Positions 11,147 through 61,943 of a stretch of DNA of 64,000 nt are shown here, in pieces. The DNA comes from a virus. Taxonomy: Duplodnaviria; Heunggongvirae; Uroviricota; Caudoviricetes. Positions within the stretch are counted from its first letter, which is position 1. Each line of letters opens with the position of its first letter. The stretch lies in the IMG/VR virus record IMGVR_UViG_3300028048_000100, positions 33,214-97,213 of that record, one strand, 5' to 3'. The notes beneath the pieces were generated by a model. It was not told where the DNA came from. It ran no database searches and worked only from the letters and a program-made list of their open reading frames with translations. Position numbers and translations under genes: made by a program.

Positions 11147-11157
11147 AAAATTTGATT

Positions 11158-11779: not shown

Positions 11780-11780
11780 A

Positions 11781-12236: not shown

Positions 12237-12242
12237 AATCAT

Positions 12243-14098: not shown

Positions 14099-14132
14099 AT
14101 ATCTATATACAAAGAAAGAGGAAATCTTTAGT
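14099..14132 (-). promoter_or_regulatory. conserved phage promoter-like motif (canonical copy)
   Basis: The minus strand reads GGGAATCACTAAAGATTTCctctttctttGTATATAGATAT ~20 nt upstream of the ATG at 14077. Confidence 0.55.
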
Positions 14133-14163
14133 GATTCCCTCCTGAATTATAGACGTTTTGGTG

Positions 14164-15245: not shown

Positions 15246-15272
15246 AATAGCAATTTATTTAATATACAAGAA

Positions 15273-22666: not shown

Positions 22667-22667
22667 T

Positions 22668-25218: not shown

Positions 25219-25578
25219 TTAGAATATGAGTATATTTTCTACACCGGTTAATTTGATGTAGTTATCACGAATCTCATCTACAAATTGGCTTGCCAAACTC
25301 TCTGTACTTTGAGTGATTGGGAAGCTAATTTTTTTGCTCATGTGATATGGAGCACGAACAAGGCATACACCTGCATTTGGATCACAGAGTACTGCATTGA
25401 CATGGAAGTACTCAGCCATAAACGCCAGGAAACTCGAATGTCTCAATTGAACTGTAGTTTCTGAATGCTCCCTGAGGTTTTTATCTATAGCATCTGTAGC
25501 GAGGTTGATTAGTTTATCTCGCCAATGCAGATCAAAGTACTGTCGACGCTCTATTGCTATGTCACTGTCCTGGATCAT
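25219..25578 (-). CDS. IQD-leader paralog family protein
   Basis: N-term MIQDSDIAIERRQ. Confidence 0.7.
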   Translation of the reverse strand: MIQDSDIAIERRQYFDLHWRDKLINLATDAIDKNLREHSETTVQLRHSSFLAFMAEYFHVNAVLCDPNAGVCLVRAPYHMSKKISFPITQSTESLASQFVDEIRDNYIKLTGVENILIF

Positions 25579-25892
25579 TTAGGCACTACTATCTTTGTTG
25601 TTTTTAGCTTTTCAAATTCTTTGTATGCAAATTCTTTAAACATCTCCAGATCACCATGTCCTCTGTAGTTTTCGTAATCGATCTTTAGTGTGACTTTGTA
25701 CGGGATATTCTTATGTACATCATCATTATATGCATATATAACAATATACAAGTATTTAGGCACATCTATAGAGCATGCCTCAAGATCTTGAAATACACCG
25801 ATCTTACGTTGGACCTCTTCCGCAGCCTTCTCTGCACACAACGTCCAGAATTTATGACCAACCAATATGTCTTGATCAGTGTCTTGTATCAT
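25575..25892 (-). CDS. IQD-leader paralog family protein
   Basis: MIQDTDQDILVGH at an internal Met. The ORF track extends to 25928, which would give ATGA coupling; which start is used is uncertain. Confidence 0.6.
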   Translation of the reverse strand: MIQDTDQDILVGHKFWTLCAEKAAEEVQRKIGVFQDLEACSIDVPKYLYIVIYAYNDDVHKNIPYKVTLKIDYENYRGHGDLEMFKEFAYKEFEKLKTTKIVVPK

Positions 25893-25924
25893 TTCTTTGC
25901 AATTACTTGTTTTCTTGTTTCGTA

Positions 25925-26323
25925 TCAATCTGGTGAGAGTATGAAGGTTTTTGTCGGGTCCTTTATCATTGTTGGATATAAGGACGCAAAGTCATTTACA
26001 CCCTTAAAAACAACCTCGGTGTATGCAAAATCTACGATGTTCTTATTCCAAGGGACATCGGTGATTTTATCGTATAGCTGTTGAACTATTTGGTCAATCA
26101 GAACATCTAGACCAAATGTTACCCAGTTTAGTGGGAATGTGATGGATGCTTGTTTATGCGATGCAGTCGATCGATCACCAAATACCACCTGCTCTTCAAT
26201 CACTAGACCCATGCTGGTTGGGTTCTCGATGATCCAACCATATAGAAACTCACGCAGTTTGTGATCCCGCATCATCAGCAAGTCGCTTTTGCTCAATATG
26301 CCTTCGTCGGTATCTTGTATCAT
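25925..26323 (-). CDS. IQD-leader paralog family protein
   Basis: N-term MIQDTDEGILSKS. Confidence 0.7.
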   Translation of the reverse strand: MIQDTDEGILSKSDLLMMRDHKLREFLYGWIIENPTSMGLVIEEQVVFGDRSTASHKQASITFPLNWVTFGLDVLIDQIVQQLYDKITDVPWNKNIVDFAYTEVVFKGVNDFASLYPTMIKDPTKTFILSPD

Positions 26324-26676
26324 GAGATATTGTATTTAATCACAGAGTTAACACCCATCTCTTTCTTAGCCCGGTAATGTTCCTCCCTGTCTTTAAGGAG
26401 CTTGCGTATTTTGTTTGGATCCGTTGCGTCAAATAAACCACCTTTATAGAAATGGGAGGAGGCCCGGACCACATCTATGTCAAAGTAGTTCAACAGCTTT
26501 ATGGTCCAATCGTCCATTTTGCCGTTCTCAAAATTATGCTCAAGCTCCATCACACGCGATGAGTAGCTAATATTAGCATATTCTACGATTTTTGCCACAG
26601 CCTCCTCACGCATCCGTTCTTGGAAGAGAATACGGCTGTTGTCATCTAATATTTTTGAATCATCATCTTGAATCAT
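26320..26676 (-). CDS. IQD-leader paralog family protein
   Basis: N-term MIQDDDSKILDDN. Confidence 0.7.
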   Translation of the reverse strand: MIQDDDSKILDDNSRILFQERMREEAVAKIVEYANISYSSRVMELEHNFENGKMDDWTIKLLNYFDIDVVRASSHFYKGGLFDATDPNKIRKLLKDREEHYRAKKEMGVNSVIKYNIS

Positions 26677-27011
26677 TAGTCATATTTAAAATCAAACAAC
26701 ACATCAATAGCTCCGCAACCAGCTGCAGCATTCATCACCTGGGTTGCAAATTTTTTAGCGCATTCTTCTTCACTTAGATCAAAATCATAGTAAATATTTT
26801 CTCTCCTGAGGAGTTTGAACCCATTAGAGTAGCAACCTAGAGGAGCCGGAGGATTGGGTACAAAGTATCTCACGTCTGCCGCACTAAATAAGAGATTAGA
26901 CTTCTCATGATGTAGCCGATGGAAGTGAACAGCATGTTCGTATGCCCGCTGGTATATCTTATATTGATCACCTCGAGCATTAGCAATACTTTTGTCCGAA
27001 TCTTGTATCAT
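26676..27011 (-). CDS. IQD-leader paralog family protein
   Basis: N-term MIQDSDKSIANAR; the promoter motif abuts its ATG. Confidence 0.7.
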   Translation of the reverse strand: MIQDSDKSIANARGDQYKIYQRAYEHAVHFHRLHHEKSNLLFSAADVRYFVPNPPAPLGCYSNGFKLLRRENIYYDFDLSEEECAKKFATQVMNAAAGCGAIDVLFDFKYD

Positions 27012-27045
27012 GTATCTATATACAAAGAAAACGAAAAACTTTAGG
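27012..27045 (-). promoter_or_regulatory. conserved phage promoter-like motif
   Basis: The minus strand reads CCTAAAGTTTTTCgttttctttGTATATAGATAC directly fused to ATGATACAAGAT. Confidence 0.5.
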
Positions 27046-27334
27046 AAAGAATTAAACAGAGATTGTTTGTTCGAACTAATTCGTCTATCTCATCGACAGT
27101 CAAGTCAAATTGTTCATTTAGAGATTTAATGATGAAGTCACACATCTTATTAACTAAGTCATCTCCAGCAACTACACTGTACAACTTGTTTTTAATCATA
27201 GACATCTCGAAGGTTATCTTACTCCCAGACCTACGTTCGTCGAGCCGATTGAACTCCACGAAATCCTTAACGATGTTACGCAATGCTAGACCATTACATC
27301 GATCTAAAACCTGTTTTTCACCATCCTGGATCAT
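27041..27334 (-). CDS. IQD-leader paralog family protein (variant MIQDGEKQVL)
   Basis: N-term MIQDGEKQVLDRC. Confidence 0.65.
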   Translation of the reverse strand: MIQDGEKQVLDRCNGLALRNIVKDFVEFNRLDERRSGSKITFEMSMIKNKLYSVVAGDDLVNKMCDFIIKSLNEQFDLTVDEIDELVRTNNLCLILS

Positions 27335-27723
27335 TTGTTTTTATAATAATTCCACAAGTCATCAGTTAGTGGCTGAAATTGGTGATAATCGTACGAATGT
27401 TCTTCTATCTGTCGCATCACCTCCCTAAATACATAATCAGCACACATATCGGCTGATTCTGTTGTGCCATTTAAAAACACTTGGTGACTTTGGTTGAATG
27501 TAATAGTCAAAGGACTCTTACTACGAAATACGACCCATATGTCCACTTGAAATGGAAATCTATCTGTTCGTTGCAGTACGCCTTTTTCAGTCTCACATGG
27601 ATCGAAACGAGAGTCCATGTAACGCTGTGCTATCCAATAATTCGCTTGCATACGAAACGAATCTTTAAGAGTCTCAGCCCAAGCCATGAACTCATTAGGT
27701 ATGTTATCTACGTCTTGGATCAT
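27331..27723 (-). CDS. IQD-leader paralog family protein
   Basis: Internal Met gives MIQDVDNIPNEF. The track ORF begins 7 codons earlier, at 27744. Confidence 0.6.
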   Translation of the reverse strand: MIQDVDNIPNEFMAWAETLKDSFRMQANYWIAQRYMDSRFDPCETEKGVLQRTDRFPFQVDIWVVFRSKSPLTITFNQSHQVFLNGTTESADMCADYVFREVMRQIEEHSYDYHQFQPLTDDLWNYYKNK

Positions 27724-28162
27724 AGTTCCTGAGATACTTTTCAATTATGTTCGTTATAGCTGCACTTTTATCCATCGCATCTCTGTTGATGGATTCAAGT
27801 GTGAACTCATTACTTCTTATTTCAGCAGCCAAATTAGCAGCTTTGACAAAATATTCCAGTTGGCCTTGATTGTACATAGATACTGTTTCACTGAGGGATC
27901 CTGAGTCTATGTATGAGTCGCCGTATTTAGTTGTCACATATTTGGGGTAGTATATATGCCCTCCGAACATGCGCGGATACTCTTTAATTGAACTGAACGT
28001 CTCAAAAACCACACAATCGTATCCAGCCTTGTCCTTGAATATCCATCTATTTCCAGATTCGGTCATCTCATATTCAAAGCCATGGCTGAAAAGGCTCTCA
28101 TTAGTTATCGGTAAGTTATCGATAATGTCCTGTTCAACTTGCTCATCAGTATCTTGTATCAT
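27704..28162 (-). CDS. IQD-leader paralog family protein (152 aa); intact copy of a tandem duplicate
   Basis: N-term MIQDTDEQVEQDIIDNLPITNESLF. The body is homologous to the split ORFs at 28167-28581. Confidence 0.7.
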   Translation of the reverse strand: MIQDTDEQVEQDIIDNLPITNESLFSHGFEYEMTESGNRWIFKDKAGYDCVVFETFSSIKEYPRMFGGHIYYPKYVTTKYGDSYIDSGSLSETVSMYNQGQLEYFVKAANLAAEIRSNEFTLESINRDAMDKSAAITNIIEKYLRNYDPRRR

Positions 28163-28166
28163 AACG

Positions 28167-28581
28167 TCACCCTTTCCAAAGGTAATCGGTTATTTCCTCG
28201 TTTAACTCCTTACTCTCTTGGGCAATGTACATTCTCAGTTTAGCAGCACGATGAGCTAATCTGATAAAACGCTCAAGTTGACCCTTCGTATATAAGTATG
28301 TTTTTCTAGTGTCTGATTTGACTGACCCTGGGCCTATCGAATGCTGCAACTGAGGGTAGGGGGATATTACATACGAGTTTACGTGGATAACCGTTTATCA
28401 AGCTGTCTCGTATGAGAAGTACATTCTCGTACCCAGATACATCTTTATAGACCCAACAGTTTTCAGGATTGGTGTTTGATATTCCTTTAAAATACAACCC
28501 ATTCCTGAAAAGATCGGCGTTTGTTATAGGCAGGTTATCTATAACATCTTTTTCCACTTGTTCATCACTTGCTTGTATCAT
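28167..28581 (-). pseudogene. frameshifted tandem duplicate of the 27704-28162 gene (IQD-leader family)
   Basis: ORF 28306-28581 (MIQASDEQVEKDVIDNLPITNADLF…GYPRKL) aligns to the N-terminal half of 27704-28162. ORF 28167-28349, in another frame (…GQLERFIRLAHRAAKLR), aligns to the C-terminal half (GQLEYFVKAANLAAEIR). The two frames overlap at 28306-28349. Confidence 0.5.
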
Positions 28582-28934
28582 AACACCACCTCCGTTACTA
28601 ATACCCTCATCTTACCACGCATATGACTATATCCTCGATTGATTCCACGGACATCGTATTGTCTGTTATATCGAGACCGAACATGCACTGTTTTGCCTAT
28701 GAGTACTATATCTTTTCTCGACATCCCTATAGGAGTCTCGTCAAAAATCACATCATCAGGATCCGCGTACACAGCCCAGGCTATAGGTGTCGATTGGAGA
28801 TCTACATATTGCTTATCTGATGCAAGCATATCCACAACCTCCATACCCAAGCTGTCGCGCAAGAACTCTTCAGTGAGGCGAAACATCTTACTATCTCGTT
28901 CTTCTAATATGTCCTTGTCATTTTGCTGAATCAT
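28578..28934 (-). CDS. IQD-leader paralog family protein (variant MIQQNDKDIL)
   Basis: N-term MIQQNDKDILEER. Confidence 0.65.
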   Translation of the reverse strand: MIQQNDKDILEERDSKMFRLTEEFLRDSLGMEVVDMLASDKQYVDLQSTPIAWAVYADPDDVIFDETPIGMSRKDIVLIGKTVHVRSRYNRQYDVRGINRGYSHMRGKMRVLVTEVVL

Positions 28935-29365
28935 ATCATATATCGTTCGCCGCTTTTAAGACGTGCCTTGACTGAGTAGTTTCCCAAATCAGTGTCATAA
29001 CCCCATTCCATAATGAAGTCCATGATTTTCTGAAAGTAGAACTCTGTGAGTGCATTAAGTTCTAATTTGTACATCTTGCGCTCCCGGTTAGTGTCTTGGA
29101 ATGAGATCTTGAACTGGAGAGGGCCGGTAATGTGGTGAAGCTCTTCATCAGTGATGCGAATCCCAGCATACTTATAGTTGACGTGATAGGTGATCTTGAC
29201 TTTTAGAGGCCATTTGCACCCACGTTTAGTTATGCCCCACTTGACATCGTCTTTAGTATTGTAAAACGACCCGAGTTCGCTTTTCAGTTGGCGTTTAAAG
29301 TTCTTGTAACCTTTCAATGCGCTAGCTGAATCTTTCAATAAGATATTGTCGTCTCCGGTAATCAT
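28931..29365 (-). CDS. IQD-leader paralog family protein (variant MITGDDNILL)
   Basis: N-term MITGDDNILLKDS; ATGA overlap with the upstream gene. Confidence 0.6.
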   Translation of the reverse strand: MITGDDNILLKDSASALKGYKNFKRQLKSELGSFYNTKDDVKWGITKRGCKWPLKVKITYHVNYKYAGIRITDEELHHITGPLQFKISFQDTNRERKMYKLELNALTEFYFQKIMDFIMEWGYDTDLGNYSVKARLKSGERYMI

Positions 29366-30139: not shown

Positions 30140-30173
30140 ATATCTATATACAAACAAAAAGGAAATCTTTAGT
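30140..30173 (-). promoter_or_regulatory. conserved phage promoter-like motif (canonical copy)
   Basis: The minus strand reads GGGAATCACTAAAGATTTCctttttgtttGTATATAGATAT. Confidence 0.55.
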
Positions 30174-30181
30174 GATTCCCT

Positions 30182-31983: not shown

Positions 31984-32727
31984 TTACGATATCATTCTCA
32001 TATTTGTGTCAGAATCTCCACTCATATTAACAGTACTCGAAAGTTTCCTTATATAGTGATCTACTTGTACTACAGTTCTCATATCATATACAGGCATGTA
32101 AGTCTCTACGGCAAGCTGCAGACTGATCTTGCGATCTTTATTGTCTGAAGTAGTACCGTCAATCTGCATGTTATACTCTGCATCCATAGACTCTGGGATA
32201 ACATAGGAAAACTTAATGTGTTGACCCATATATACAACACTTGCAGTCCTAATGAAACTGAGTTTGGTTATAATCTGCTGAATAAGTTCCAATGCGTCTG
32301 TATAAGTGTCCAAGTAATAATTCAAATCGAACGACATAGTCAGTGGATATCTACGGAACTCTGCAGTGAAAGTAGTGACACCTTCTTCGTGTTCTAATTG
32401 GAATTGACCTTGAGAGTACGGAGACGTGAGCTGGTCCGGGATAAGGTTGATGCCCTTCGGCTCTACAATACAACGAGGTTTAACGCTGTACACGTAGTCC
32501 TCATTGGATACTTGTCCTGGTTCAACAGCTGCGTTTTGACCCTTTACACCAAGCCACATAGTATCATCACCAGTATTTAAGATGAAATGTGGTACGCCTG
32601 CTCCTCGAACTGTTATGTCCTTCTTGAGTTGCTGCATAACACCTTTGATGAGGATCATGAAGAAGAGAGATTGATTGTTGATATCAATCTCACCCCTTCT
32701 AATCTTATTAGTTAACGCAGTATCCAT
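31984..32727 (-). CDS. hypothetical tail/baseplate-module protein (247 aa)
   Basis: Coupled between the 1055-aa protein and the gpV-like gene. Confidence 0.4.
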   Translation of the reverse strand: MDTALTNKIRRGEIDINNQSLFFMILIKGVMQQLKKDITVRGAGVPHFILNTGDDTMWLGVKGQNAAVEPGQVSNEDYVYSVKPRCIVEPKGINLIPDQLTSPYSQGQFQLEHEEGVTTFTAEFRRYPLTMSFDLNYYLDTYTDALELIQQIITKLSFIRTASVVYMGQHIKFSYVIPESMDAEYNMQIDGTTSDNKDRKISLQLAVETYMPVYDMRTVVQVDHYIRKLSSTVNMSGDSDTNMRMIS

Positions 32728-35700
32728 TATCTTCTACGTATGCTATTTACTGTTGTTCGTACTACTGGTGCAAACTTTGTTTGTTTAGCAATAGTATCTT
32801 TTGGAATCTTTGCTATGACAGAGCTGTACTTAGTAATATTGTTAGTTTGTGATTCAACAATCTTCTTGTGAAGTGACTTGTTCTCTTCTGTTGAGTTGTT
32901 AACGATCTTGAAGTAATAGTTAGTCGGGTCATTAAACAGTGATAGACGAATATCGAACTGCACCTCAAGCTCATCATTTGAGTATGTATATCCATCATCG
33001 CTAATCTTATAGAATGAGAACCAGAATGGTAAGATCAAACTCTCGCCAGGTTCCAGTGTCTTAAAGCTACGTGCACTATCAGAATTAACGAATAGCTGAC
33101 TCATACTCTTAGTAATCATTGGAGCATATTGTGGCTCTTTCATGTCCTCTGTAATGACACCCTTGAGCTCGCGATCAGCATATACATCTTTTGAACGGAA
33201 GTACATGAACTGATTGTTATGCTGTTTGTTGAAGCGATATACTCCAATAGCTCCTGAAGATCCCTCATTAGTATCTGTAGCCTTTAAGCCGATAGAAGCA
33301 CTGGTATAATTGTTCAACAAGATACGTGTGTTGTCATAAGAATCCTTGTTGCTATAGCTTCTCGGATTCTCAGGATCTGTGATGATACGAGTTCTGCTAC
33401 CGGGGAACAATGAGTAGATGTTCACTGTTCTTGTGGATGTGTTTGTGATCTGGATGTTAGCAATGTTAGAATACTTATATGCCTCTTCGCGATCGATTGG
33501 TTCAGTTTTACTGCTCTTATCAACACTAACATTGACTACATTATCTACATCCTTGGCAATAAGGGTAGATGTACTTGCAAAGATAAACTCAATCTTCAGA
33601 TTGTCTGAGTTAGATCCATACACAGCATCTTCCAGAGAAACAATCGCATTATCCATAGATGATAGCTTATCCTTCAAAGGAATAACACGACGTTCAGCCG
33701 TGTAGAAACCTGAAGATATGTGCTCAGGGTGGTGGAAGTATACCAAATCCTGATCACTCAACTTATCGTTTACATGGTCATTTACACCTTCATCTATCAG
33801 TATGTTCTTAAAGCGATTGGTTTCAATATCGCTATTATTTTCTTCGATGATGGTTAGGACCTGTACGTCCTTAAGTAATTCATCTGGGAACTCTACATTA
33901 ACAATATTACTCCAATCACTGGTGGTCTCAATAAACGGCGCACCAAAGTCCCAAACAATCTTGAGGCGAATATCCACAGTCTCTCCCTGAGTGATAGGTA
34001 TATCAATCTGGTTGAATGATGGTACGTTCTTATCGTCTGTTGTAACAACCTCTGCCCCATTCACATAATCTGGATAATCAAACGTATATTGGCTATCCGC
34101 ATCGCAAGAAGGATTCTTTACACGATTGAATCCAGGCATGATGTTCCAGTCAGAGAAGATAAACTTACCATTCTGGAGGCTATCCGCATTGCCTACTGCG
34201 CGATCTTTGTTCTTATAACGATATTGAACTTGAATTGCTCGGATATGCTTCATGAACTGCGCAATCTCTGTGTCGCCCTGTGCCAAAGTAACCCAATCGA
34301 AATATCCGCGAATGTGGTACTTCGCATTCTCAATAGGCACCTCACTTTGGTTAGCTGCTAATGAAATCTCAGAGATAACATTGTTGATGGCAGTCACAAT
34401 CTCATTCTTCTTTGCAGTATTTTCACTTAACTGTGATTCGTATAGCGTGCGAATGTTTGAAGTATCATCGAATGTGTTAGAAGCAAGAGTGGATTGTATC
34501 TCAGAAATCTTCTTCTGTACCTCATCCAATTTTAATTCATACTGCTTTTTCTGCGAATATAGGCTACGAATGCGCTGTACTGTCGGAGAATCGTTGAGGT
34601 GTTTATTGATTTGAATCACACTCAAGTCGTTAGCACTGAGTGTCGGCTTGTATTGTGTAAATGTATCGAAATCCTCCTTCGGATATTTTGTGATGTTAGT
34701 GTCGATTATTGCCACAATCTCGGCCAGAATATCGCCAATATTCTTGACGTTATCCTTGTAGAATGTTTGATAGCTTTCAGTTTCCTTAACAGCATTCTTG
34801 ATGCGATATGAGTCAACTACTACACCATCTCCCCAAGGAGATTGAACATTCATGCGGTCGTTGAGAGCTGCGATGAATACTCCGATGTATTGATTCTCCT
34901 CAAGAGTAACATCCATATATTTATCTTTGCTGTAGTCACGATCTGAGAAGAAGCGTAACTTGTGCAAATCCTGAATATTCTGAAGCTCAGTTTCTGCGCC
35001 TGTATATGGTGCGATGTCGAGGTAATCACCATTAACGATATTGAGAACTAATTGATTTGTACTCATATTAACGTCAACGATCTGAAGTTTAACCCGGCCG
35101 TCATAAGTAGTCAAGTACTGACCTGGCTCTAGTTCAACGTCGATTGTCTCATCGAACTTCTTGTAGTATAGTTGAGTATTCTCTGCAAACTTGAGAGTAA
35201 GCTGCTGAGTTAAATCACTAAGAGTCTCGTCTTTAATGATCTCAGTAATGACATAGGTACCAGTGCCGATTGCTTGACGAACGGGTAGCTGTTTTACCGT
35301 ATCATACTCCTCGTAATCTACACCTTTATTTAGTACAGCCAGCTGCTTGTACAACTCTCTATATGGAACTGATACTGAATACTCATCAATACCCACTTCC
35401 GTATCGATGTGGATGTAGGATCCTAACACAGCCTTAGCGCGAGCAGTGATTGGCACAACTTTCTTAACGATTACTTTTGAGATATCGTCAGGAAGTGTTG
35501 TCAAATCAAAGCGTACGTAAGCATTTGGGGTGATCATGTCTTTGAAGAAGTTAGTATCCTCATATAAGAACTTCTTCGCATTGTCTGGTTTGAGGTATAG
35601 AGCATTTGGCGTGTTGTTGAAACCACGCACCTGAATTGTCTTTGAATTACCGTCGAATTGGAAATATGCCTCACCAGCAGCCGGAGCATTGACAAGGTTA

Positions 35701-35894
35701 TACAAACTCTCCTGAAGAGCATTGATTTTGTTCTCCAATGATAGGAAAGAAGGGATAACGAATTTGTTATCAGACATACTAACAACTAAGTGCTCTTTCT
35801 TAGTAAAGAATGAATCATTGAGTGTCTTGAGAATGTCTAGGTTTTGCTCGGTAAGCTCCTCTAGTCTTTTTATGGCTTCGGTTAAACTTGTCAT
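32727..35894 (-). CDS. large virion protein (1055 aa), tail/baseplate candidate
   Basis: Very long ORF with a coiled-coil-like N-terminus. No enzymatic motifs seen. Confidence 0.55.
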   Translation of the reverse strand: MTSLTEAIKRLEELTEQNLDILKTLNDSFFTKKEHLVVSMSDNKFVIPSFLSLENKINALQESLYNLVNAPAAGEAYFQFDGNSKTIQVRGFNNTPNALYLKPDNAKKFLYEDTNFFKDMITPNAYVRFDLTTLPDDISKVIVKKVVPITARAKAVLGSYIHIDTEVGIDEYSVSVPYRELYKQLAVLNKGVDYEEYDTVKQLPVRQAIGTGTYVITEIIKDETLSDLTQQLTLKFAENTQLYYKKFDETIDVELEPGQYLTTYDGRVKLQIVDVNMSTNQLVLNIVNGDYLDIAPYTGAETELQNIQDLHKLRFFSDRDYSKDKYMDVTLEENQYIGVFIAALNDRMNVQSPWGDGVVVDSYRIKNAVKETESYQTFYKDNVKNIGDILAEIVAIIDTNITKYPKEDFDTFTQYKPTLSANDLSVIQINKHLNDSPTVQRIRSLYSQKKQYELKLDEVQKKISEIQSTLASNTFDDTSNIRTLYESQLSENTAKKNEIVTAINNVISEISLAANQSEVPIENAKYHIRGYFDWVTLAQGDTEIAQFMKHIRAIQVQYRYKNKDRAVGNADSLQNGKFIFSDWNIMPGFNRVKNPSCDADSQYTFDYPDYVNGAEVVTTDDKNVPSFNQIDIPITQGETVDIRLKIVWDFGAPFIETTSDWSNIVNVEFPDELLKDVQVLTIIEENNSDIETNRFKNILIDEGVNDHVNDKLSDQDLVYFHHPEHISSGFYTAERRVIPLKDKLSSMDNAIVSLEDAVYGSNSDNLKIEFIFASTSTLIAKDVDNVVNVSVDKSSKTEPIDREEAYKYSNIANIQITNTSTRTVNIYSLFPGSRTRIITDPENPRSYSNKDSYDNTRILLNNYTSASIGLKATDTNEGSSGAIGVYRFNKQHNNQFMYFRSKDVYADRELKGVITEDMKEPQYAPMITKSMSQLFVNSDSARSFKTLEPGESLILPFWFSFYKISDDGYTYSNDELEVQFDIRLSLFNDPTNYYFKIVNNSTEENKSLHKKIVESQTNNITKYSSVIAKIPKDTIAKQTKFAPVVRTTVNSIRRR

Positions 35895-38243: not shown

Positions 38244-38834
38244 TCAATCTAACATCCAAATCTCTTCTGGTACTGATATTTCATATGTCCAACTCAGAGC
38301 TTTGAAGTCCATGCGATACTCTTTATTAGATTTTGTACCAGGACGTTTATCGTATGGTTTTTGGGCGTGTTTATCACGGAACCATACTCTAAATTGAATT
38401 TCCAGTCCACACACCTTGTATATCTGGTTTGAATCAAACTCTTTACTAGTCTTTTCAAACTCGACGTGTTTAGATTTTAGGTACTTTTCAAAACCTTCTC
38501 TCAATGCAGCACGGATGAAATTTTGGTTATCTATATCAACAGCTTCAAAGTCCTTGTTGTAATAGATGCTTGCATCATCGTGGTGAATAGATATGATGTA
38601 GTTCCACATATCATCCATATAGTACTTAACCGTGACACATTTCTTATTGATCCACTCATGACCGCGATTAGCAATAACCGGTTTACTCGCACCATTGACC
38701 TTACGAGAATCGATATGAAGTTGCTCGAAGAACTGATCCAGTGCTTCGCGTGCACGACGTTTGTCAATTTCGTTCTTGACTTTCTTGTCAATTACGTCGT
38801 CATTATCTTGTATGGCTTCCCAGAGTGTTCTCAT
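38244..38834 (-). CDS. IQD-leader paralog family protein, long-leader form (isolated copy)
   Basis: N-term MRTLWEAIQDNDDVIDKKV. Confidence 0.7.
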   Translation of the reverse strand: MRTLWEAIQDNDDVIDKKVKNEIDKRRAREALDQFFEQLHIDSRKVNGASKPVIANRGHEWINKKCVTVKYYMDDMWNYIISIHHDDASIYYNKDFEAVDIDNQNFIRAALREGFEKYLKSKHVEFEKTSKEFDSNQIYKVCGLEIQFRVWFRDKHAQKPYDKRPGTKSNKEYRMDFKALSWTYEISVPEEIWMLD

Positions 38835-39229
38835 TTCTTAAATTTTAACAGGAAATTTGTGTAAGTACCGCCGATCTCGAAGAATACATAATCAGCCTTC
38901 TCCCAAAGACCCTTGGAATTGTTGTATCCATAACTACCTACCTCATATAGCTCAGAGTCGTCAGCAAAGTAACTCTTGACGATCTCATAAACCTCTTCGT
39001 AGGTCATGCCCGGTTCAATACGAGCAGTAAGTATCTTAAACAAGCTATCCCAGAGTTTAGCAGGAGCCTTAACAAGCCAATCCAATGAATAATCTACAGA
39101 GTGTTCCTTAACATCCTTCTCGATGGCTTTCTTGTCGAGCAAACCGGACTTCTTGTTTAGATTTTTCCAAATGAGCTTTGCCTTTTGTGTATCAATAGCT
39201 TCGGTCAAGTATTCAGATAGACTTTTCAT
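38831..39229 (-). CDS. MKxL..LxE-leader family protein
   Basis: N-term MKSLSEYLTEAIDTQ; ATGA coupling. Confidence 0.55.
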   Translation of the reverse strand: MKSLSEYLTEAIDTQKAKLIWKNLNKKSGLLDKKAIEKDVKEHSVDYSLDWLVKAPAKLWDSLFKILTARIEPGMTYEEVYEIVKSYFADDSELYEVGSYGYNNSKGLWEKADYVFFEIGGTYTNFLLKFKK

Positions 39230-40896
39230 TATACTATATTGACTTTATTCATTTCTTTAGTTAATATATGTGCCTTGTATGGGCTAACTGTATAACCGAG
39301 CTTTGCCAATGTGTCACGGTTCAATAAGCAGTTTGTTGTCTTAGTATCGCGGTTATCAACAATACTGATATGTACGTCTTTAACCTTACGTAGACCGAGC
39401 TGTAACTCGGGGAGAACGATCACTGGTCTCTTGAAATGCTCTTCACCGGCAATAACCTTAGACTCTTTCACTTTCTCATAGCTAAACTTCTTGCCATCGA
39501 TAGTAAACTCAACAGTATTACCCTTATCTTCAAACTCACCAACCTCCAAACAAGTGGCATTAGTTGAGTTACCAGTGTCTAACTTAGCTAGGAACTCTTT
39601 TCTAACACCCTCACCAAAGTCGATAGTTACGCTCTCTACGTATCCGGCGGTTTTGTCTTGAAGCATGAACTCTGAAGGATCATCCAGCTCATTTAAGAGG
39701 ATGTTCACAAAGTTCTCCTTGATAACATCTGAGATACCATCTGTACCCGGCGATGCATTGATCTCCAATACGACGTTGTCGCCGATCTTTGGATTACTAC
39801 CCTTTACGAGTGGCATGATATCCACAGCACACCATGGCAAGTGTGACAGCTGTGCGGTGCGGAGTGCGATTTGTTCTTGCTCCTTAGTCAGCTTAACTGG
39901 TTCTGCTGTTGCACCGAGAGAAACATTTGAACGGAAGTCACCAGAGATCTTAACACGTTTCATACAAGCCAAGATCATCTGTTTATTACGAAGTGTGAGT
40001 ACATGAACACGAATATCACCCCCATCAGCCTCTTCTTTCTTTTGGATGATAAGCTTGCGCTCAGGATCGATGGCGAAGATCATTTGGAATATAGCCAATA
40101 TCTTCTTACCATCTACCATAGCTACACCAGTTCCACCATGGCCGTCTAGAATCTTAACAACGAACATCAACTCTTCGTTCTTATCCTGGTCCTTGTCACT
40201 CCATTCCGGATAAACCTCACGCATAGCATCATTATAGAGTTTCTCGTCATATAGAATCTCCTTAGTCATCAGTGTAAAGTTAGGCTGAGGAATCTCACCC
40301 TTCTGGAACAATACTGCTGAATCATACTTATTACATGCGAGTGCACTATACTGTACTGGATTGAGAACTAAGAAACCTCTATCCTGGAGCACCTTGACAA
40401 TATGTTCGCACTCATCTTCATCTTGCACGCCAAGACGTGAGAAGATCAAGGTGTCTAAGTTAGACTCTTTCTCAATAGTAAACTTCTCATCACCGTCAGT
40501 AATGACTATCTTGTTCTCATTCTCATCTGCGTCAATATCTGCTGCAACAAATACGTGAACCTCGGGGATAATCGGGCATTTTTGTTTCTTGAGAGTGTCA
40601 ACCGCATCGTAGATATTCTTTAATGTCTTGTTCTCCTTCGGGTCACGGTCATTAGTGAATACAACGATGTGTTTGAATATATTTTTACACTCTTTTGGAT
40701 GCTGTTCAGCATACGCTACCTCAAGTTCTTCTTTATTCTGAGCTTGTTTGGAAATTCGCTTTTGCTCTTTTTCCTTTTCCTTTTCTATTTCTGCGCGCTC
40801 TTTAGCAGATTTTTCCTCGAGCTTCTCTGTGATCATTTGGCGCACTTGGTCATCGTGCATCAGCGCATTCACATTGTGAAAATTTGAATAATCCAT
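39229..40896 (-). CDS. RimK-like ATP-grasp ligase fused to a C-terminal retropepsin-like domain (PF05618-type 'ATP-dependent Zn protease')
   Basis: 'FVVKILDGHGGTGVAMVDG', 'DIRVHVL' and 'GDFRSNVSLGATAEPVKLT' match RimK ATP-grasp motifs. The C-terminus carries 'LDTGNS…' and 'LLNRDTLAKLGYTV', which are aspartic-protease-like. Confidence 0.6.
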   Translation of the reverse strand: MDYSNFHNVNALMHDDQVRQMITEKLEEKSAKERAEIEKEKEKEQKRISKQAQNKEELEVAYAEQHPKECKNIFKHIVVFTNDRDPKENKTLKNIYDAVDTLKKQKCPIIPEVHVFVAADIDADENENKIVITDGDEKFTIEKESNLDTLIFSRLGVQDEDECEHIVKVLQDRGFLVLNPVQYSALACNKYDSAVLFQKGEIPQPNFTLMTKEILYDEKLYNDAMREVYPEWSDKDQDKNEELMFVVKILDGHGGTGVAMVDGKKILAIFQMIFAIDPERKLIIQKKEEADGGDIRVHVLTLRNKQMILACMKRVKISGDFRSNVSLGATAEPVKLTKEQEQIALRTAQLSHLPWCAVDIMPLVKGSNPKIGDNVVLEINASPGTDGISDVIKENFVNILLNELDDPSEFMLQDKTAGYVESVTIDFGEGVRKEFLAKLDTGNSTNATCLEVGEFEDKGNTVEFTIDGKKFSYEKVKESKVIAGEEHFKRPVIVLPELQLGLRKVKDVHISIVDNRDTKTTNCLLNRDTLAKLGYTVSPYKAHILTKEMNKVNIV

Positions 40897-43299: not shown

Positions 43300-43971
43300 T
43301 CAACCTTCATATGTACAAGTCTCCCAATCCCAGTTGCCTGCACCAGTGATTATAGAAGATAATTCTTCCGCAAGCTTCTTGGATGTGTTATCGTCTGCTA
43401 TCAGATAGAAGAACATGCCGTCATCTCCATCAGCAGTCAATAGGTAAACCTCGTCACCTTTATTGAGATCAAATTCATCGGATAACAACTCTTGTTGAGC
43501 GTAGGAGTCGTCCCACGGATAGTTTCCTAGGAACTTAGTACCATAGTCAACTCGCTTGTCTTCGATGTCTTTGCATACCTTACAAAGGTTCTTGATGAAT
43601 GGTTTATTAGATTTAGCCCAATCAGCATCAACGGATACATCATCCCATCGATCCCAATCCTCACCATTCTTAGTGTTGACATCGAATTTGGCTGCGAAAG
43701 ATATGATGGATTCAACGTTGGCTGCAGAAGACTCAATATGCTTATTAGATTCAACGAGTAAGCTTTCCTTTAGAAAATCCTTCAGGTCTTTCATCTTCTT
43801 CTTGGTTTTTTGCTTCTTAGCCTTTGCTTTGTCAGTATCCATACCTTGTGCGAGTGGTTCCGATAAAGTGTCTTCACCAGTTGGTCCCGGATTACCAGCA
43901 CCCATTGTGTTACCCGGTGTAGTATAGATACCGGCACCATCACACTCGAGATATGTTAGCAAACTTCGCAT
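43300..43971 (-). CDS. hypothetical protein (223 aa), begins MRSLL
   Basis: ORF with a Lys-rich patch (KAKAKKQKTKKK). Confidence 0.55.
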   Translation of the reverse strand: MRSLLTYLECDGAGIYTTPGNTMGAGNPGPTGEDTLSEPLAQGMDTDKAKAKKQKTKKKMKDLKDFLKESLLVESNKHIESSAANVESIISFAAKFDVNTKNGEDWDRWDDVSVDADWAKSNKPFIKNLCKVCKDIEDKRVDYGTKFLGNYPWDDSYAQQELLSDEFDLNKGDEVYLLTADGDDGMFFYLIADDNTSKKLAEELSSIITGAGNWDWETCTYEG

Positions 43972-50503: not shown

Positions 50504-50534
50504 AAAAGAGGAGCTTAAAACTCCTCTTTTATTA
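50504..50534. terminator. bidirectional rho-independent terminator
   Basis: aaaagaggag-cttaaaa-ctcctctttt, flanked by A/T runs, between convergent genes. Confidence 0.65.
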
Positions 50535-50822
50535 TGCCTTCGCGCCAATCACTGAACCAACAACTGCACAAATTGTACGCGATGTTAGTATGTTATAGAT
50601 TGGCCCATCCGTTACGCCTAGTGCTTTACAAATGGCTTTCATGACAGATGCGCCGATTGTTGCGCCTGCTAGACCGCCTACTAATGAGCCCAAGAATCCT
50701 TCGTCTACGTTGTTCTCTTTGATCGCTTGTGCAATCTTATCAGATACCTCCTCGACTACTTTCTCGTCAATTGGTTCGTTTTTTGCCAGGCTTTCATTTA
50801 GTTTTTCAGATAATCCTTTCAT
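50532..50822 (-). CDS. MKxL..LxE-leader family; glycine-zipper small membrane protein
   Basis: N-term MKGLSEKLNESL. The C-terminus has GSLVGGLAGATIGASV and GSVIGAKA. Confidence 0.55.
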   Translation of the reverse strand: MKGLSEKLNESLAKNEPIDEKVVEEVSDKIAQAIKENNVDEGFLGSLVGGLAGATIGASVMKAICKALGVTDGPIYNILTSRTICAVVGSVIGAKA

Positions 50823-50832
50823 AGCTATTCGT

Positions 50833-51441
50833 TTATTGGCCCATCAGTTTGTAAACCAAGTCATGGTCTTCCAATGACATGTCTGTGTCTGCGATTGTGT
50901 AGATTGCAAAATAGTCATCCTTCTCCAAGAACTTGTCGAAGTTGCTCTTATTATGCTTGCGCAATTCACCTTCTTTGTCATATATGGTTGCGATTTGATT
51001 GGCAAGATTTTGAAGTACGCTGTCATCTATCTTTTTAGGATAGTCCGGGCAGTTAACCTTAGCACGCTTCTGGAGCACGTCGAGAATCATGGACTCTGCA
51101 GTAGCAGCATCGACTGATTCATTAACACTCTCTCGGATGCTCCATAGTTTGTGAATCTTGTCCTGATACTCCTGGTCGGCAGCATCTGCCATGCTAAGGA
51201 TATCGTCCTCTACATAACTAATGAATGAATCAACAGTCTTGTGGTTAAGGAGCTCCTCTTCGTTTTCATACCAGTCAAGCACTTCGTTAGCAAGATCACG
51301 AAGATCGTCATCACTCATATGGGCACGAGATTCCTTGTTCTTTGTTGCAAGAAGATCGAATATGGCTTTTTCAGCATCGGTATTGCTGATTCCACGCGCT
51401 TCGTTTAAGCTCTCAATGAGCATGTCTTTTAAATCCTTCAT
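50833..51441 (-). CDS. MKxL..LxE-leader family acidic protein
   Basis: N-term MKDLKDMLIESL. Confidence 0.55.
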   Translation of the reverse strand: MKDLKDMLIESLNEARGISNTDAEKAIFDLLATKNKESRAHMSDDDLRDLANEVLDWYENEEELLNHKTVDSFISYVEDDILSMADAADQEYQDKIHKLWSIRESVNESVDAATAESMILDVLQKRAKVNCPDYPKKIDDSVLQNLANQIATIYDKEGELRKHNKSNFDKFLEKDDYFAIYTIADTDMSLEDHDLVYKLMGQ

Positions 51442-51445
51442 GTCT

Positions 51446-52051
51446 TTATGACTTTATTCCGAAGAGCTTGCCGCAATCAGTTGCGACTGGCCCATAGCTT
51501 GGCTGCTGGCCTATTTCATTCTCGAGATTCTCGTCGTTGAATGGGATGATAACGATGTATTTCACGTCACTGTGTTTCCACATATCCTTAACAGCCTTGT
51601 CCACTTTTATCTGTAAACCCTCGTTGGTGTGTTCGCTCATGCTCTCGTTTAAAAACTCGACTAAGCTTCTCATCGGTTTATCTGCACTCTCTCTCAATAC
51701 TTTGAGTTTATACAGGGTAGAATCGATAAGAGATAGAATGGCATCCACATCACTCTTGAGCTCGTCTTCTTTGAGGAACTTTTTGCCATCCTCAGCCAGT
51801 TCTCTGAGTGATTCGAGGTATTCGATAGCATTCATCTTATCAGTTGACATCACATTCTTGAGGTTCTTAACCACACCATGAATGCCCTGATACTCTTCGA
51901 TGAGTGAATCTACGAGATCAACAACCTTTTCATAGAACTCATTTAGAGCAATGTGCGAACTATATTTGTCGGTCTTGAGATGGGCTTTCCAGGCTTCTAC
52001 CATAGAACCCTGAAGTGTTCCTAAATATTCTTCAATCGTTTCAACTTTCAT
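51446..52051 (-). CDS. hypothetical acidic protein (201 aa)
   Basis: N-term MKVETIEEYL. Lies in the same coupled block. Confidence 0.55.
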   Translation of the reverse strand: MKVETIEEYLGTLQGSMVEAWKAHLKTDKYSSHIALNEFYEKVVDLVDSLIEEYQGIHGVVKNLKNVMSTDKMNAIEYLESLRELAEDGKKFLKEDELKSDVDAILSLIDSTLYKLKVLRESADKPMRSLVEFLNESMSEHTNEGLQIKVDKAVKDMWKHSDVKYIVIIPFNDENLENEIGQQPSYGPVATDCGKLFGIKS

Positions 52052-52063
52052 ACCTTTTGTTTC

Positions 52064-52408
52064 TTATTTCAGACAGATGTATGACACGTTATTAACTACC
52101 TTAACATCCTGAGGCTTCATACTCAATAGAGCTGAGTACTCATCATCGTCAGTGCCAAGTAGATCTTGATAATCCTCGATCGAATTGAACGCAACAACAA
52201 ACACTGCACCTTCGTATTGATCAAAGGAGAGGAATGCACGCTTGTACTTCTTGAAACCTTCTGCTGCATCGAGAGTAGTATATGCTGCCCCCTTGGAAGC
52301 TTCCCATTGAATTGCATTTGCAAGGGGTTGTTTTTCCTCGTTTATGTCATTTGTATTTTGCTCATTGACTTCGAGCTGCTCTTTCAGCATTTCACCTAGA
52401 TCCTTCAT
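52064..52408 (-). CDS. MKxL..LxE-leader family protein
   Basis: N-term MKDLGEMLKEQL. Confidence 0.55.
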   Translation of the reverse strand: MKDLGEMLKEQLEVNEQNTNDINEEKQPLANAIQWEASKGAAYTTLDAAEGFKKYKRAFLSFDQYEGAVFVVAFNSIEDYQDLLGTDDDEYSALLSMKPQDVKVVNNVSYICLK

Positions 52409-52410
52409 GA

Positions 52411-52680
52411 TTATTTGATGATATTTTTAGCCCAATCAATGTGTTTGTCGATATCGTATTCTTTTGCAATTTTCTCGAGGGTATCCTTTACTTCTTTGTG
52501 AGTAAACTCGATACCTTCATCATCCCATGCGTCTTTGAGACCCTGAGTGATGCGTTCTTCCAGAATATATTGCAAAGATTTCCAACCTCTACGTTCGTTG
52601 ACGTCGGTATGAGGAGTCTCCTGGTTGTCATCTTGTTTAACACCCAAGGATTCTTTCAATGTTTCTTCTAGACTTTTCAT
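52411..52680 (-). CDS. MKxL..LxE-leader family protein
   Basis: N-term MKSLEETLKESL. Confidence 0.55.
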   Translation of the reverse strand: MKSLEETLKESLGVKQDDNQETPHTDVNERRGWKSLQYILEERITQGLKDAWDDEGIEFTHKEVKDTLEKIAKEYDIDKHIDWAKNIIK

Positions 52681-52705: not shown

Positions 52706-52852
52706 TTATAAAGGCTTTACATCGAATGTAAGACCATTTGCAAGAGTCACCATCTTATAGCCAGGATTCTCTTCAATATCAACCGCTGTGCATACTGCGG
52801 AAGGGTTGATGTATAGGCGTTTGCCATCTAATGTTTCGTAATTAGGTTCCAT
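52706..52852 (-). CDS. small hypothetical protein (48 aa)
   Basis: Found by hand translation: MEPNYETLDGKRLY…VKPL. Not in the track, which only lists ORFs of 60 aa or longer. Confidence 0.3.
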   Translation of the reverse strand: MEPNYETLDGKRLYINPSAVCTAVDIEENPGYKMVTLANGLTFDVKPL

Positions 52853-52898
52853 ACAAATATAATAAAATTTATCATACGTTATTAAATAACTTTCGCTT

Positions 52899-54132: not shown

Positions 54133-55206
54133 ATGGAAAATATATTACTTTTTTCGTTTACAACAAGCATCAGCGAGAACAAGAACTTGCAGATGGTATA
54201 TGATGATAACGGTATGCTGCATATCATCGGCCGCTTTGGTGGGATGGATGAACATTCCGAAGATGGTAAGGCGTGGATTGACTATCCGAGCTTCTATCAA
54301 TGCGCTGAGGACTTTAGAAAGCGTGCTCGTAAAGATGGGCTTATTGGGATACCCGGAGAGTTAGAACATCCAGTGGGTGTTGATCGAGATAAAATCACCC
54401 TTGAAAATATATCACACAAGATCGTAGACTTAGTCGTATCTGACTGTGGTGATGTCACTGGTGAGATTGTCATATTGGATACTCCTAAGGGTCGAATTGC
54501 AAAAGCTATCATAGACGAGGGATTACCTCTGTACATCTCATTAAGGGCAGAGTGCAACGTCCAATGGGATAGTATGCAGATCCCAAGGATCAACCTAATT
54601 AAGTTCATCACATTTGACTTAGCGAGTCAAACAAGTCTGGCATTATATGAAAAACCAGAAGCGACTATTGCAGAAACAAATAAACAAAATACTAGTATGA
54701 ATAAGGAAAAACCAACAAAACGCAACAAGAAGTACGAAAGCCTGAACGGCAAGTACAAAGTTGACCAGAAGAAGCGTGCTGTCGTTTACTTCATCGTATC
54801 TAAGGGTGAGGTTATTGCCGGTGTAGCAAAGTGTAACGAAGGTGAAGTGTTTGATCTTGAACTCGGCCGTCAGATCGCATATCGTCGTGCTCACTACAAT
54901 CAACGTGAACGTGATCTATTCTTGCTCCGCATGTTTATCGATGACATGAAGAGTTCAATCGACGCATTCAAAGACGCTCATTTGCTTTACTGTAAGCACT
55001 ATGAGATTGCTCTACAACGTGCTGCTGAAGAAGAGAAGCTGCAGCTCGCTATGATGCGCGATCTTCGTCGCGAGATTGATGAGTTGATCAAGTATGGGCA
55101 TGTACTCACAGAGGCGGAGCGTGAAGCGTTAAATCCTGGCGAGGGTGCCATCTCATGCGGCATCAAGAGAGAAGTCCGTGAGGATGTTAAAGAAGAGGAA
55201 AAGTAA
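54133..55206 (+). CDS. hypothetical protein (357 aa)
   Basis: Long ORF. Coiled-coil-like C-terminus. Confidence 0.55.
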   Translation: MENILLFSFTTSISENKNLQMVYDDNGMLHIIGRFGGMDEHSEDGKAWIDYPSFYQCAEDFRKRARKDGLIGIPGELEHPVGVDRDKITLENISHKIVDLVVSDCGDVTGEIVILDTPKGRIAKAIIDEGLPLYISLRAECNVQWDSMQIPRINLIKFITFDLASQTSLALYEKPEATIAETNKQNTSMNKEKPTKRNKKYESLNGKYKVDQKKRAVVYFIVSKGEVIAGVAKCNEGEVFDLELGRQIAYRRAHYNQRERDLFLLRMFIDDMKSSIDAFKDAHLLYCKHYEIALQRAAEEEKLQLAMMRDLRREIDELIKYGHVLTEAEREALNPGEGAISCGIKREVREDVKEEEK

Positions 55207-60973: not shown

Positions 60974-61365
60974 AAGTCTTTTTTGTGTATTCCTAAATAA
61001 AGGGTCCATACGTCATCTGGCACATCCACGTCCAGGCGGATTACATAACTATCCTTGATAGAATCTACGATATGCTGCATATCCTTGAGGTACTCATGCC
61101 ATTCACCACTACCATTCAATCCACCATATATCTTAGCTATATAGTGGTCATCCCGACCTTCTACCATGTACACTGTTACAAGTGCTAGATTAGACTTGTT
61201 TTTGAACTCTAATTTTGCTTTAAGCTTGTCATCGAGATCGTGGGTTTCTTTCCACTTCTCACCGAATTGCTCATAGTGCTTCTTGAGTTCGTCTTCGTCC
61301 TCATGTACCTGCACCTTAAGGTTGGACATGATATAGCTATGCATTAGAAAGTTCTGAAGTGTCAT
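60970..61365 (-). CDS. hypothetical protein (131 aa)
   Basis: ORF with ATGA coupling on both sides. Confidence 0.55.
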   Translation of the reverse strand: MTLQNFLMHSYIMSNLKVQVHEDEDELKKHYEQFGEKWKETHDLDDKLKAKLEFKNKSNLALVTVYMVEGRDDHYIAKIYGGLNGSGEWHEYLKDMQHIVDSIKDSYVIRLDVDVPDDVWTLYLGIHKKDL

Positions 61366-61943
61366 AGTATAACGATTTTACTTTTTGGAGTGCCAGAGAA
61401 GCGTGATACAATCTTTTCGTCAATTTTCATGCCGTCACACTCTTTGATCTTGATATACTTAGCTTTTGGCATACCCTTAAGGGACTTGATAGTACAATTC
61501 CTAATTATTAGGCCGCAGCACTCTTTAACATCACAGTCGCTAAAGTCAAGACCCTTACTATATTCAATAGTTATGTTATTCTTAGGCATATTAGTTGGCA
61601 GACCGCGTACAGATGTTATCTCTTGACCGCATAAGACGAAGGCTAAACGCTCATCATCGGGATCTGCAAATTTTATGAAGCTTGGCAAGTTCTCCTTAAA
61701 GATATCAACTGTATGGTCTCCGGAGAATGCATTAGCTGATCTGATTCGTATCTTGCCGTTTACAATTTCAAAATTACGCGCGTCATTAGAACCATCTCGA
61801 ACTGAATAATCATACAGATCATGGCAATGGTCTTTAAACCATGCGTTTACGTTGACAGCAGTAGCTAAATCTTGTGCAGTCTTATCCAGAACGTCATTAT
61901 CGTCCATATGTATAGCCTCATATATGTCTAATAAAGATCTCAT
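61362..61943 (-). CDS. leader-family protein, divergent MRSL subgroup
   Basis: N-term MRSLLDIYEAIHMDDNDVLDKT aligns with MRTLWEAIQDNDDKVLD. Confidence 0.6.
   Translation of the reverse strand: MRSLLDIYEAIHMDDNDVLDKTAQDLATAVNVNAWFKDHCHDLYDYSVRDGSNDARNFEIVNGKIRIRSANAFSGDHTVDIFKENLPSFIKFADPDDERLAFVLCGQEITSVRGLPTNMPKNNITIEYSKGLDFSDCDVKECCGLIIRNCTIKSLKGMPKAKYIKIKECDGMKIDEKIVSRFSGTPKSKIVIL

Follow-up and report, generated by a model that had tools for sequence, protein, structure and literature searches.

The closest described counterpart of the element reported here is the capsid-targeting sequence (CTS) of phage T4, MKTYQEFIAE (PMC8442874), an N-terminal peptide that is the sole part common to the internal proteins of the T-even phages (PMC3012670). 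The T4 prohead protease gp21 cleaves after L/I-X-E, and mapping of the CTS in the internal protein IPIII assigned residues 4 and 7 to targeting and residues 8 and 10 to processing; Asp at position 10 abolishes processing and leaves targeting intact (PMC9026906). The giant phages phiKZ, 201phi2-1 and SPN3US likewise possess a gp21-like protease that cuts after Glu (PMC5694885). Here we describe a 12-residue N-terminal tag in a 64,000-nucleotide stretch of DNA from an uncultured giant tailed phage (IMG/VR record IMGVR_UViG_3300028048_000100, positions 33,214 to 97,213), the whole of which is referred to as the window. Five minus-strand open reading frames (ORFs), four of them in a block at 50.5-52.9 kb, start M-K-x-L-x-[E/D]-x-L-x-E-[S/A/Q]-[L/I] (a slash in the sequences marks a cleavage position, putative in the case of the window):

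52411..52680, minus strand: leader-bearing protein of 89 residues, MKSLEETLKE/SL, isoelectric point (pI) 4.9
52064..52408, minus strand: leader-bearing protein of 114 residues, MKDLGEMLKE/QL, pI 4.3
50833..51441, minus strand: leader-bearing protein of 202 residues, MKDLKDMLIE/SL, pI 4.45; internal tandem duplication of a helical domain
50532..50822, minus strand: leader-bearing protein of 96 residues, MKGLSEKLNE/SL; Gly/Ala-rich, hydrophobic C-terminal half
38831..39229, minus strand: leader-bearing protein of 132 residues, MKSLSEYLTE/AI; lies in an operon between a RimK-type ATP-grasp gene and an MRTLWEAIQD gene

The coordinates, strand and N-termini of all five ORFs are as given in the original prediction, and their start codons are unambiguous because each is the first ATG, GTG or TTG after a stop. 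Residues 2-13 of the five leaders give a sum-of-pairs BLOSUM62 score of 255. Shuffling each protein's own residues yields -53 to -67 ± 26 (z ~12; 0 of 20000 shuffles reach the real score), random internal 12-mers from the same five proteins yield -106 ± 27, and random sets of five other N-termini, drawn from genes without the IQD leader described below, score at most 35. Because the five had been chosen by eye, the selection step was rerun on 2000 proteomes in which residues 2-31 had been shuffled, each time taking the best 5 of 58 N-termini. The highest score was 118, or 129 with residue 2 kept, and none of the 2000 reached the real score; a blind best-five search of the real N-termini recovers exactly the five ORFs listed above. 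The permutation test that the original prediction had named as its refuting check therefore excludes chance (z ~12, 0/2000).

The similarity is maintained in the protein. Conserved Leu residues are written TTA, CTA, CTC, CTG or TTG, with four or five codons per conserved Leu position, and conserved Ser is written AGC or TCC; the use of different codons at conserved positions indicates that conservation acts at the protein level. Compared with an orthologous block in a related contig (L009, ~81% identity), residues 1-12 are 96% identical, residues 13-30 68% and the remainder 85%, and of 13 codon changes within the tag 11 are synonymous and 2 non-synonymous. These data bear directly on the alternative that conservation acts on the mRNA or early translation, as a start-site context in a host that does without Shine-Dalgarno pairing, or on a DNA recombination site for gene cassettes. 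Window genes do lack Shine-Dalgarno-like sequences, their upstream regions are A/T-rich and Lys (AAA/AAG) is a common second codon, all of which would suit such a role. The codon differences, the excess of synonymous changes and the lack of conservation in the DNA upstream of the tagged members speak against it, and we regard it as very improbable. The tag is real and under purifying selection at the protein level.

The tag is also modular, in that it precedes unrelated bodies from which it is separated by a variable linker. After removal of the first 20 residues, no similarity between the tagged proteins of the window was detected by BLASTP, and the segment directly after the tag (residues 13-30) is the most variable part of each protein. 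The bodies range from 89 to 202 residues and differ in predicted fold, being all-helical, alpha/beta or Gly-rich and hydrophobic. In the AlphaFold2 (AF2) model of the 202-residue member (mean predicted local distance difference test score, pLDDT, 76.6), a low-confidence helix spans residues 4-15, confidence dips at residues 12-14 and 103-108, and two confident helical domains follow. These correspond to a duplicated helical domain of ~85 residues, in which residues 10-89 match residues 104-186 with 30% identity (E 5e-6). In the 132-residue member (pLDDT 77.5), a low-confidence leader helix at residues 4-13 precedes an alpha/beta body that starts at residue 17. The bodies had been predicted to be helical, a description that fits the 202-residue member and fails for this one. 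Foldseek searches with both models against viral (BFVD) and PDB libraries gave no match below E = 1, and a homologue search with the 202-residue member found only relatives of at least 81% identity. Four true homologues of the 132-residue member, recovered by a full HMMER search, share 30-35% identity with it and retain M1, L4, Y7 and E10, the tag being the best-conserved part of the family at this distance. On small contigs, neighbours of these homologues begin alike (MKNLKDFISESI, MKHLTDTINEGL and MKTLAESILAGR). The same member also hit the repeat proteins P0125 and P0130, but these hits reflect low complexity and were discarded.

These observations bear on a further alternative, in which the tag has no targeting role. 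It would be either a first helix preserved better than the rest of paralogues that diverge fast, or a recurrently favoured amphipathic start. Starts of the MK-L-E-L-E type are frequent at phage gene starts generally, and the internal repeat of the 202-residue member begins at Glu10, so that the leader may lie partly in a folded unit there. Paralogy is hard to square with bodies that differ in length and predicted fold and show no similarity, with a most variable segment directly behind the tag, and with a tag that is the best-conserved part of the 132-residue family; together with the distribution of the tag in other phages (below), this makes the alternative improbable.

Further copies were sought by scoring all 1664 ATG-started 12-mers of the window with a matrix built from the five leaders. 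The membership of the original prediction proved correct for its five entries and incomplete, as two more copies were found:

43300..43794, minus strand: extra member MKDLKDFLKESL, MKDLKDFLKE/SL, scoring 24.6 bits and sixth best of the 1664
51446..52051, minus strand: 201-residue protein with a DUF5856 domain (residues 24-116; PF19174, E 3.7e-19; phrog_858) and a C-terminal part of 75 residues, which carries the second additional copy

The first of these, MKDLKDFLKESL, is either the start of a 164-residue protein or residue 60 of a 223-residue ORF (43300-43971). The 59 residues that would precede it are rich in G, P and T and then in K, and the DNA ahead of the ATG is A-rich; because the preceding stretch has this composition, the ATG at 43794 may be the true start. 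The longer ORF (minus strand) itself opens with a tag-like sequence, MRSLLTYLECDG. The second copy, MRSLVEFLNESM (MRSLVEFLNE/SM), lies at 51673, in frame at residue 127 of the DUF5856 gene; it has a score of 13.8 bits and is conserved in L009. This gene is thus composed of domain, tag and a 65-residue tail, while T4 rI.-1, the annotated name of phrog_858, has only 128 residues; the arrangement looks like a gene fusion or an internal start. All seven window copies share L4, L8 and E10, and six of them have S or A at position 11; position 7 varies in the window (K, M, T, Y or F), whereas most relatives have Y or F there.

Positions 4, 8 and 10, which do not vary, coincide with functionally critical positions of the T4 CTS, and the ending [L/I]-x-E followed by S or A conforms to the gp21 cleavage rule. 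In T4, the corresponding N-termini are MKTYQEFIAE/A in IPII and IPIII, MKTFKEF...ITE/A in IPI, MAKINELLRE/S in gp24 and MELITELFDE in Alt; gp22 begins MLKEQLIAE/A, and gp23 is cut at FLTE/A. Recognition between the two sets works in both directions. A leader matrix built from only seven leaders (five from the window and two from a related contig) and scored on 280 T4 N-termini ranks IPIII 3rd, IPII 5th, gp24 7th, IPI 10th and gp67 13th (Mann-Whitney p ~1e-3). Its top match is gp61.1 (MKTFKEFIKEDM, 1st of 280), a 54-residue protein of unassigned function with a CTS-like start (gene 61.1, NC_000866 18966-19130, minus strand). Conversely, with a matrix of five T4 head propeptides applied to the 93 window N-termini, the top 15 consist of the five members, nine MR[T/P]LWEAI[Q/N]D genes and a 1055-residue protein (MTSLTEAIKR, 11th of 93), with a gap below. 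The gene of this last protein (32727-35894, minus strand) lies in the structural region, adjoins a gp15-like gene and begins MTSLTEAIKRLEEL.

Like the T4 CTS, the window tag belongs to the class of N-terminal peptides of 10-19 residues on otherwise unrelated small proteins of one phage. The two share a hydrophobic position 4, Glu 6, Leu/Ile 8 and Glu 10 followed by Ala or Ser; in both cases a gp21-family protease is encoded in the genome and the genes lie in variable accessory regions. In contrast to T4, position 7 is variable in the window, conservation reaches residue 12, the tag is half of a longer module, far more genes are tagged, the phage is distant from T4, and packaging and cleavage are predicted. 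The propeptides of T4 gp24, Alt, gp67 (MEGLIEAIKSNDLV) and gp22 have a hydrophobic/Glu spacing like that of the window tag. That of gp67 (gene 67, NC_000866 102781-103023) shares 8 of 14 residues with MRTLWEAIQDNDDV, whereas the bodies show no homology and gp22 aligns in another register.

Among the giant phages, SPN3US gp53 and gp54 are paralogous head proteins with identical short N-termini, which resemble the window tags in this respect, and some phiKZ-group cargo proteins have membrane segments (PMC5694885). The propeptides of this group, carried by inner-body and ejection proteins, differ in being mostly >100 residues long, the cut motif is A/S/G-x-E rather than the L/I-x-E of the window, and the genes do not form long arrays of unrelated small proteins under one tag (PMC5694885).

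A candidate processing enzyme is encoded close to the tagged block:

54133..55206, plus strand: prohead protease of the T4 gp21 / Peptidase_S77 family, 1.3 kb from the block

The protease matches phrog_207 (E 1.6e-13), the family to which T4 gp21 itself belongs, and its homologues carry PF03420. In the alignment with T4 gp21, His79 of the GELxHP motif, Ser136/Arg138 and Asp162 are conserved. A direct BLAST comparison with T4 gp21 is not significant alone, so that family membership rests on profiles and this alignment, and a PDB sequence search returned no match. Residues 190-357 form a C-terminal extension unrelated to that of the homologues, most of which have PF20034 repeats; its own matches, to phrog_22171 and N4 gp49-like PF13876, are weak.

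Based on this comparison we tentatively propose, at slightly less than an even chance, that the tag is a modular address, namely a T4-CTS-like capsid-targeting and processing propeptide. An amphipathic helix with Leu4, Leu8 and Leu/Ile12 on one face would dock the new protein onto the prohead core. The gp21-family serine protease would then cut after Glu10, inside [L/I]-x-E followed by Ser or Ala, and the acidic body freed inside the head would be delivered with the DNA or serve in core assembly. We infer all of these steps: docking to the core, the cut at Glu10, residence in the virion and injection. That otherwise unrelated proteins have a targeting or processing leader in common, as first proposed from the window, is the best reading of the absence of BLASTP similarity between bodies, the variable linker, the separate low-confidence helix, the likeness to the T4 CTS and the gp21 cut motif. 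Its companion suggestion, that the bodies are scaffold or internal-core proteins, is conjectural: homology links them to none of T4 gp22, gp67, gp68 and the internal proteins, and they are acidic where the T4 internal proteins are basic. Pfam and PHROG searches with all members returned sub-threshold hits only and no match to an internal virion protein, and PF17634 (GP67) matches T4 gp67 and no window protein. Of the members, that of 202 residues was assessed for the character of a prohead core protein; it is acidic and all-helical and has a second I-x-E/S in a flexible linker; this IRE/S, directly before the second domain copy, echoes the LIE/S of its tag.

The tag had been regarded as distinct from a second leader in the window with the sequence IQD. 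This separation does not hold, as bridging sequences connect the tag with the IQDxD stretch and thereby point to a single two-part module. One bridging form lies in the window (MRSLLDIYEAIHMDDNDV, at 61362-61943), others in related contigs (MRSLYDSILEAIQDSDE and MRTLLEVIYEAIQDNDS in L007, MRSLYDAIKESINDDDD in L008) and in more distant phages (MKNIKEYINESLFDSEDD, MRGLNQFISESIFDADFD and MKSLINVLNEGLFDAVGDD). As judged from these N-termini, part A, M-[K/R]-x-L-x-[E/D]-x-[L/I]-x-E-[S/A]-[L/I], and part B, [I/L]-[Q/F]-D-x-D-x-x-[V/I/L], make up one module, which occurs as A alone, as shortened A followed by B, and as B alone. About 26 window genes begin MIQDxD or a close variant, and nine begin MR[T/P]LWEAI[Q/N]DxD.

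The IQD genes show features of their own. Co-directional arrays of small, unrelated genes lie at 6551-14077, 25219-29365, 14164-15779 and 38244-38834 on the minus strand and at 20708-23602 on the plus strand. MIQD arrays carry another promoter-like motif, TATATAGATA. A conserved element of ~45 nt, GGGAATCACTAAAGATTTCCTyTTTsTTTGTATATAGATAT, found upstream of MIQD arrays, combines a hairpin with a second promoter-like motif and is unlike the TTATTATA class; it occurs at 14100-14140 and 30141-30180 (minus strand) and also at 12244, 27013 and 10127.

Protease relatives in viral contigs were missed by a single-sequence search and found by an alignment-based one, which gave 80 contigs centred on protease homologues. 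Of their N-termini, 49 of 1504 score at least 6 bits, compared with 5 of 7146 internal Met 12-mers, and 75 of 1504 N-termini fit a simple part-A pattern as against 8 of 6742 internal positions, so that N-termini are ~45-fold enriched in the tag over internal Met positions. In a 197-kb contig (L147), nine genes in a row begin MK[S/N/T]L just upstream of the protease gene, six of them at 6 bits or more, and three contigs found independently through the DNA pattern of the tag also encode the S77 protease family. As read from these contigs, uncultured giant phages with S77 protease genes form a clade in which the tag is widespread; a tblastn search of cultured phages with a leader-containing 32-mer gave no match. 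In the relatives the tag stands ahead of enzyme domains, those of nucleoside diphosphate kinase (NDK), a HAD-like hydrolase and a GNAT-like acetyltransferase (the latter two from sub-threshold Pfam hits):

L147 14907-15332, L145 15292-15696, L147 3774-4349 and L008 10501-10884: tag-plus-enzyme genes (NDK, HAD-like, GNAT-like)

The NDK domain is complete and, because PF00334 begins only at residue 16-18, the tag is an add-on in front of it. A tag that precedes a complete known domain, and that is enriched ~45-fold at N-termini, is difficult to reconcile with a mere first helix or favoured start. Unrelated viral contigs have the tag on a further enzyme, a P-loop kinase that weakly matches NT5C.

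Leader arrays are not confined to this sequence. LR756500.1 (L136), a very distant, uncultured megaphage of 462 kb and 24% GC, has nine adjacent unrelated genes with a leader of its own, MKYILEYEEFLLE; the array lies at 2889-7984 and its leader can be written MKYI[L/K/Q]EYEEFL[L/F]E. Since this leader differs, such arrays may be a general device with lineage-specific sequences, a habit untied to any one of them. We found no paper on leader arrays of this kind in giant phages.

Several observations weigh against a capsid-targeting role. The bodies are acidic, as had been predicted (pI 4.3-5.9), whereas the internal proteins of T4 (IPI, IPII, IPIII), to which we found no homology, are small and basic. 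In the leader matrix, T4 sequences reach 2-10 bits and leave-one-out members 13-21 bits, and because the absolute scores of T4 sequences are low, the resemblance to the CTS may have arisen by convergence. Depletion of cleavage-type sites in the tagged bodies is weak and inconsistent. Counting all forms, ~40 of the 93 window ORFs are tagged (5 + 9 + 26), much cargo for one head. Genuine gene starts in viral contigs often show the pattern, among them those of a terminase small subunit, of nucleotide kinases and of NDK, proteins not expected as capsid cargo; specificity of the tag for head proteins, which we had entertained, is weakened by its presence on a terminase small subunit and NDK. Finally, the TTATTATA motif stands upstream of both structural-region and enzyme genes and so gives no signal of expression timing.

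The main rival explanation is that the tag addresses another partner, such as a phage-made compartment or enzyme complex, a chaperone, or a protease by which a whole set of proteins is eliminated at a given moment. Its resemblance to the T4 CTS would in that case have arisen by convergence, both being short, acidic, amphipathic helices. This view accommodates a tag on metabolic-type enzymes (NDK, HAD-like and GNAT-like proteins, and the P-loop kinase of unrelated contigs), a number of marked ORFs that, with the part-B relatives, exceeds the apparent need for capsid cargo, and the separate leader on nine genes of LR756500.1. It does not account for leaders that end in [L/I]-x-E-[S/A], for an S77 protease close by or for the recognition of T4 and window sequences by each other's matrices, and no candidate partner was identified. 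We regard it as possible though somewhat unlikely.

A larger version of the capsid-targeting proposal would be bulk loading, in which the two-part address, a T4-CTS-like helix and then an acidic IQDxD / LFDxxDD stretch, packs dozens to hundreds of proteins into the head, NDK and acetyltransferases among them, for co-injection; in a variant the address would lead to a new intracellular destination. Proteins with part A only end their leader in a potentially cleavable Glu10, while the MRTLWEAIQD form has Asp at position 10, the residue that uncouples targeting from processing in T4. Under bulk loading, part A with Glu10 would thus mark proteins that are targeted and cleaved, and A plus B with Asp10 proteins that are targeted and remain uncleaved; B alone would stand for a third fate. 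We consider bulk loading or its variant doubtful.

The operon of the 132-residue member raises one more alternative. Its first gene (39229-40896, minus strand), directly upstream of the member, encodes a 555-residue protein with a RimK-type ATP-grasp domain (PF08443, E 2e-20) and a C-terminal LDTGNS that may be reminiscent of retropepsin-like proteases. The tagged proteins could then be precursors resembling ribosomally synthesized and post-translationally modified peptides (RiPPs), with the tag as leader for a modifying enzyme such as this ATP-grasp protein, and the layout of a conserved N-terminal leader with a variable remainder is indeed that of RiPPs. Unlike RiPP precursors, however, the window proteins are 89-202 residues long with domains confidently folded in AF2, Pfam and PHROG searches found no modifying enzyme in the 50.5-52.9 kb block, and in relatives the tag is carried by ordinary enzymes. 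This makes a RiPP-like role hardly credible.

The minus-strand block, called coupled in the original prediction, is compact, with gaps of 2-25 nt, and forms one unit. In addition to the tagged genes and the DUF5856 gene it comprises the following features:

52857..52865, minus strand: promoter-like motif TTATTATAT, 5 nt upstream of the block's first ORF
52706..52852, minus strand: leaderless ORF of 48 residues (MEPNYETL...), first of the transcription unit; no family hit; also present in the orthologous contig L010
50504..50530, minus strand: terminator-like hairpin of 12 bp with a 3-nt loop, followed by a T-run; end of the block

The motif TTATTATAW occurs 10 times in the window, where 2.8 copies are expected, mostly 5-20 nt (in two cases ~55-65 nt) upstream of an operon's first gene. 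It precedes the operons of 38831 and 43794, the MRTLWEAIQD array and the 1055-residue structural-region gene. The last tagged gene of the block, 50532-50822, had been described as a glycine-zipper membrane peptide. We could not substantiate this: its best Pfam hit among the families PF05433, PF13488 and PF04226 reaches 17.9 bits against a cut-off of 24.2, the other hits are weaker, and its hydrophobic stretch is borderline, with a 19-residue Kyte-Doolittle hydropathy of 1.58 at residues 43-61.

The window had no nucleotide match when the block and the surrounding 25 kb were compared with 50,697 phage records. Its lineage occurs in the data sets JGI 3300026525, ENA ERZ27257204 and SRR16606037. 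The relatives of the 1055-residue protein, 22-24% identical, come from Prevotella Lak megaphages, Tenacibaculum phage pT24, phages of Flavobacterium, Chryseobacterium and Sphingomonas, and a 462-kb uncultured phage. The identity of these relatives, together with genes that lack Shine-Dalgarno-like sequences, suggests a Bacteroidota-type host. T4-type virion modules in the window include the large terminase, a gp14-like head-closure protein, the gp21-like protease, a baseplate domain (PF12322) and a gp15-like protein; T4-like accessory genes are represented by the DUF5856 protein (T4 rI.-1 family) and a deoxynucleoside monophosphate kinase. A single tRNA-Arg (anticodon TCT) is located at 5376-5449 on the minus strand.

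Should the tag prove to be a capsid-targeting signal, it would provide a simple sequence rule for listing, from metagenomes, the injected protein arsenal of uncultured giant phages, which would include likely anti-defence and host-takeover factors. The head-loading mechanism of T4 would then be ancient and greatly expanded in this lineage, and the engineering of cargo-carrying phage particles would profit from a short, portable tag that functions outside T4. If the tag leads elsewhere, it would point to a new sorting system in phage-infected cells.

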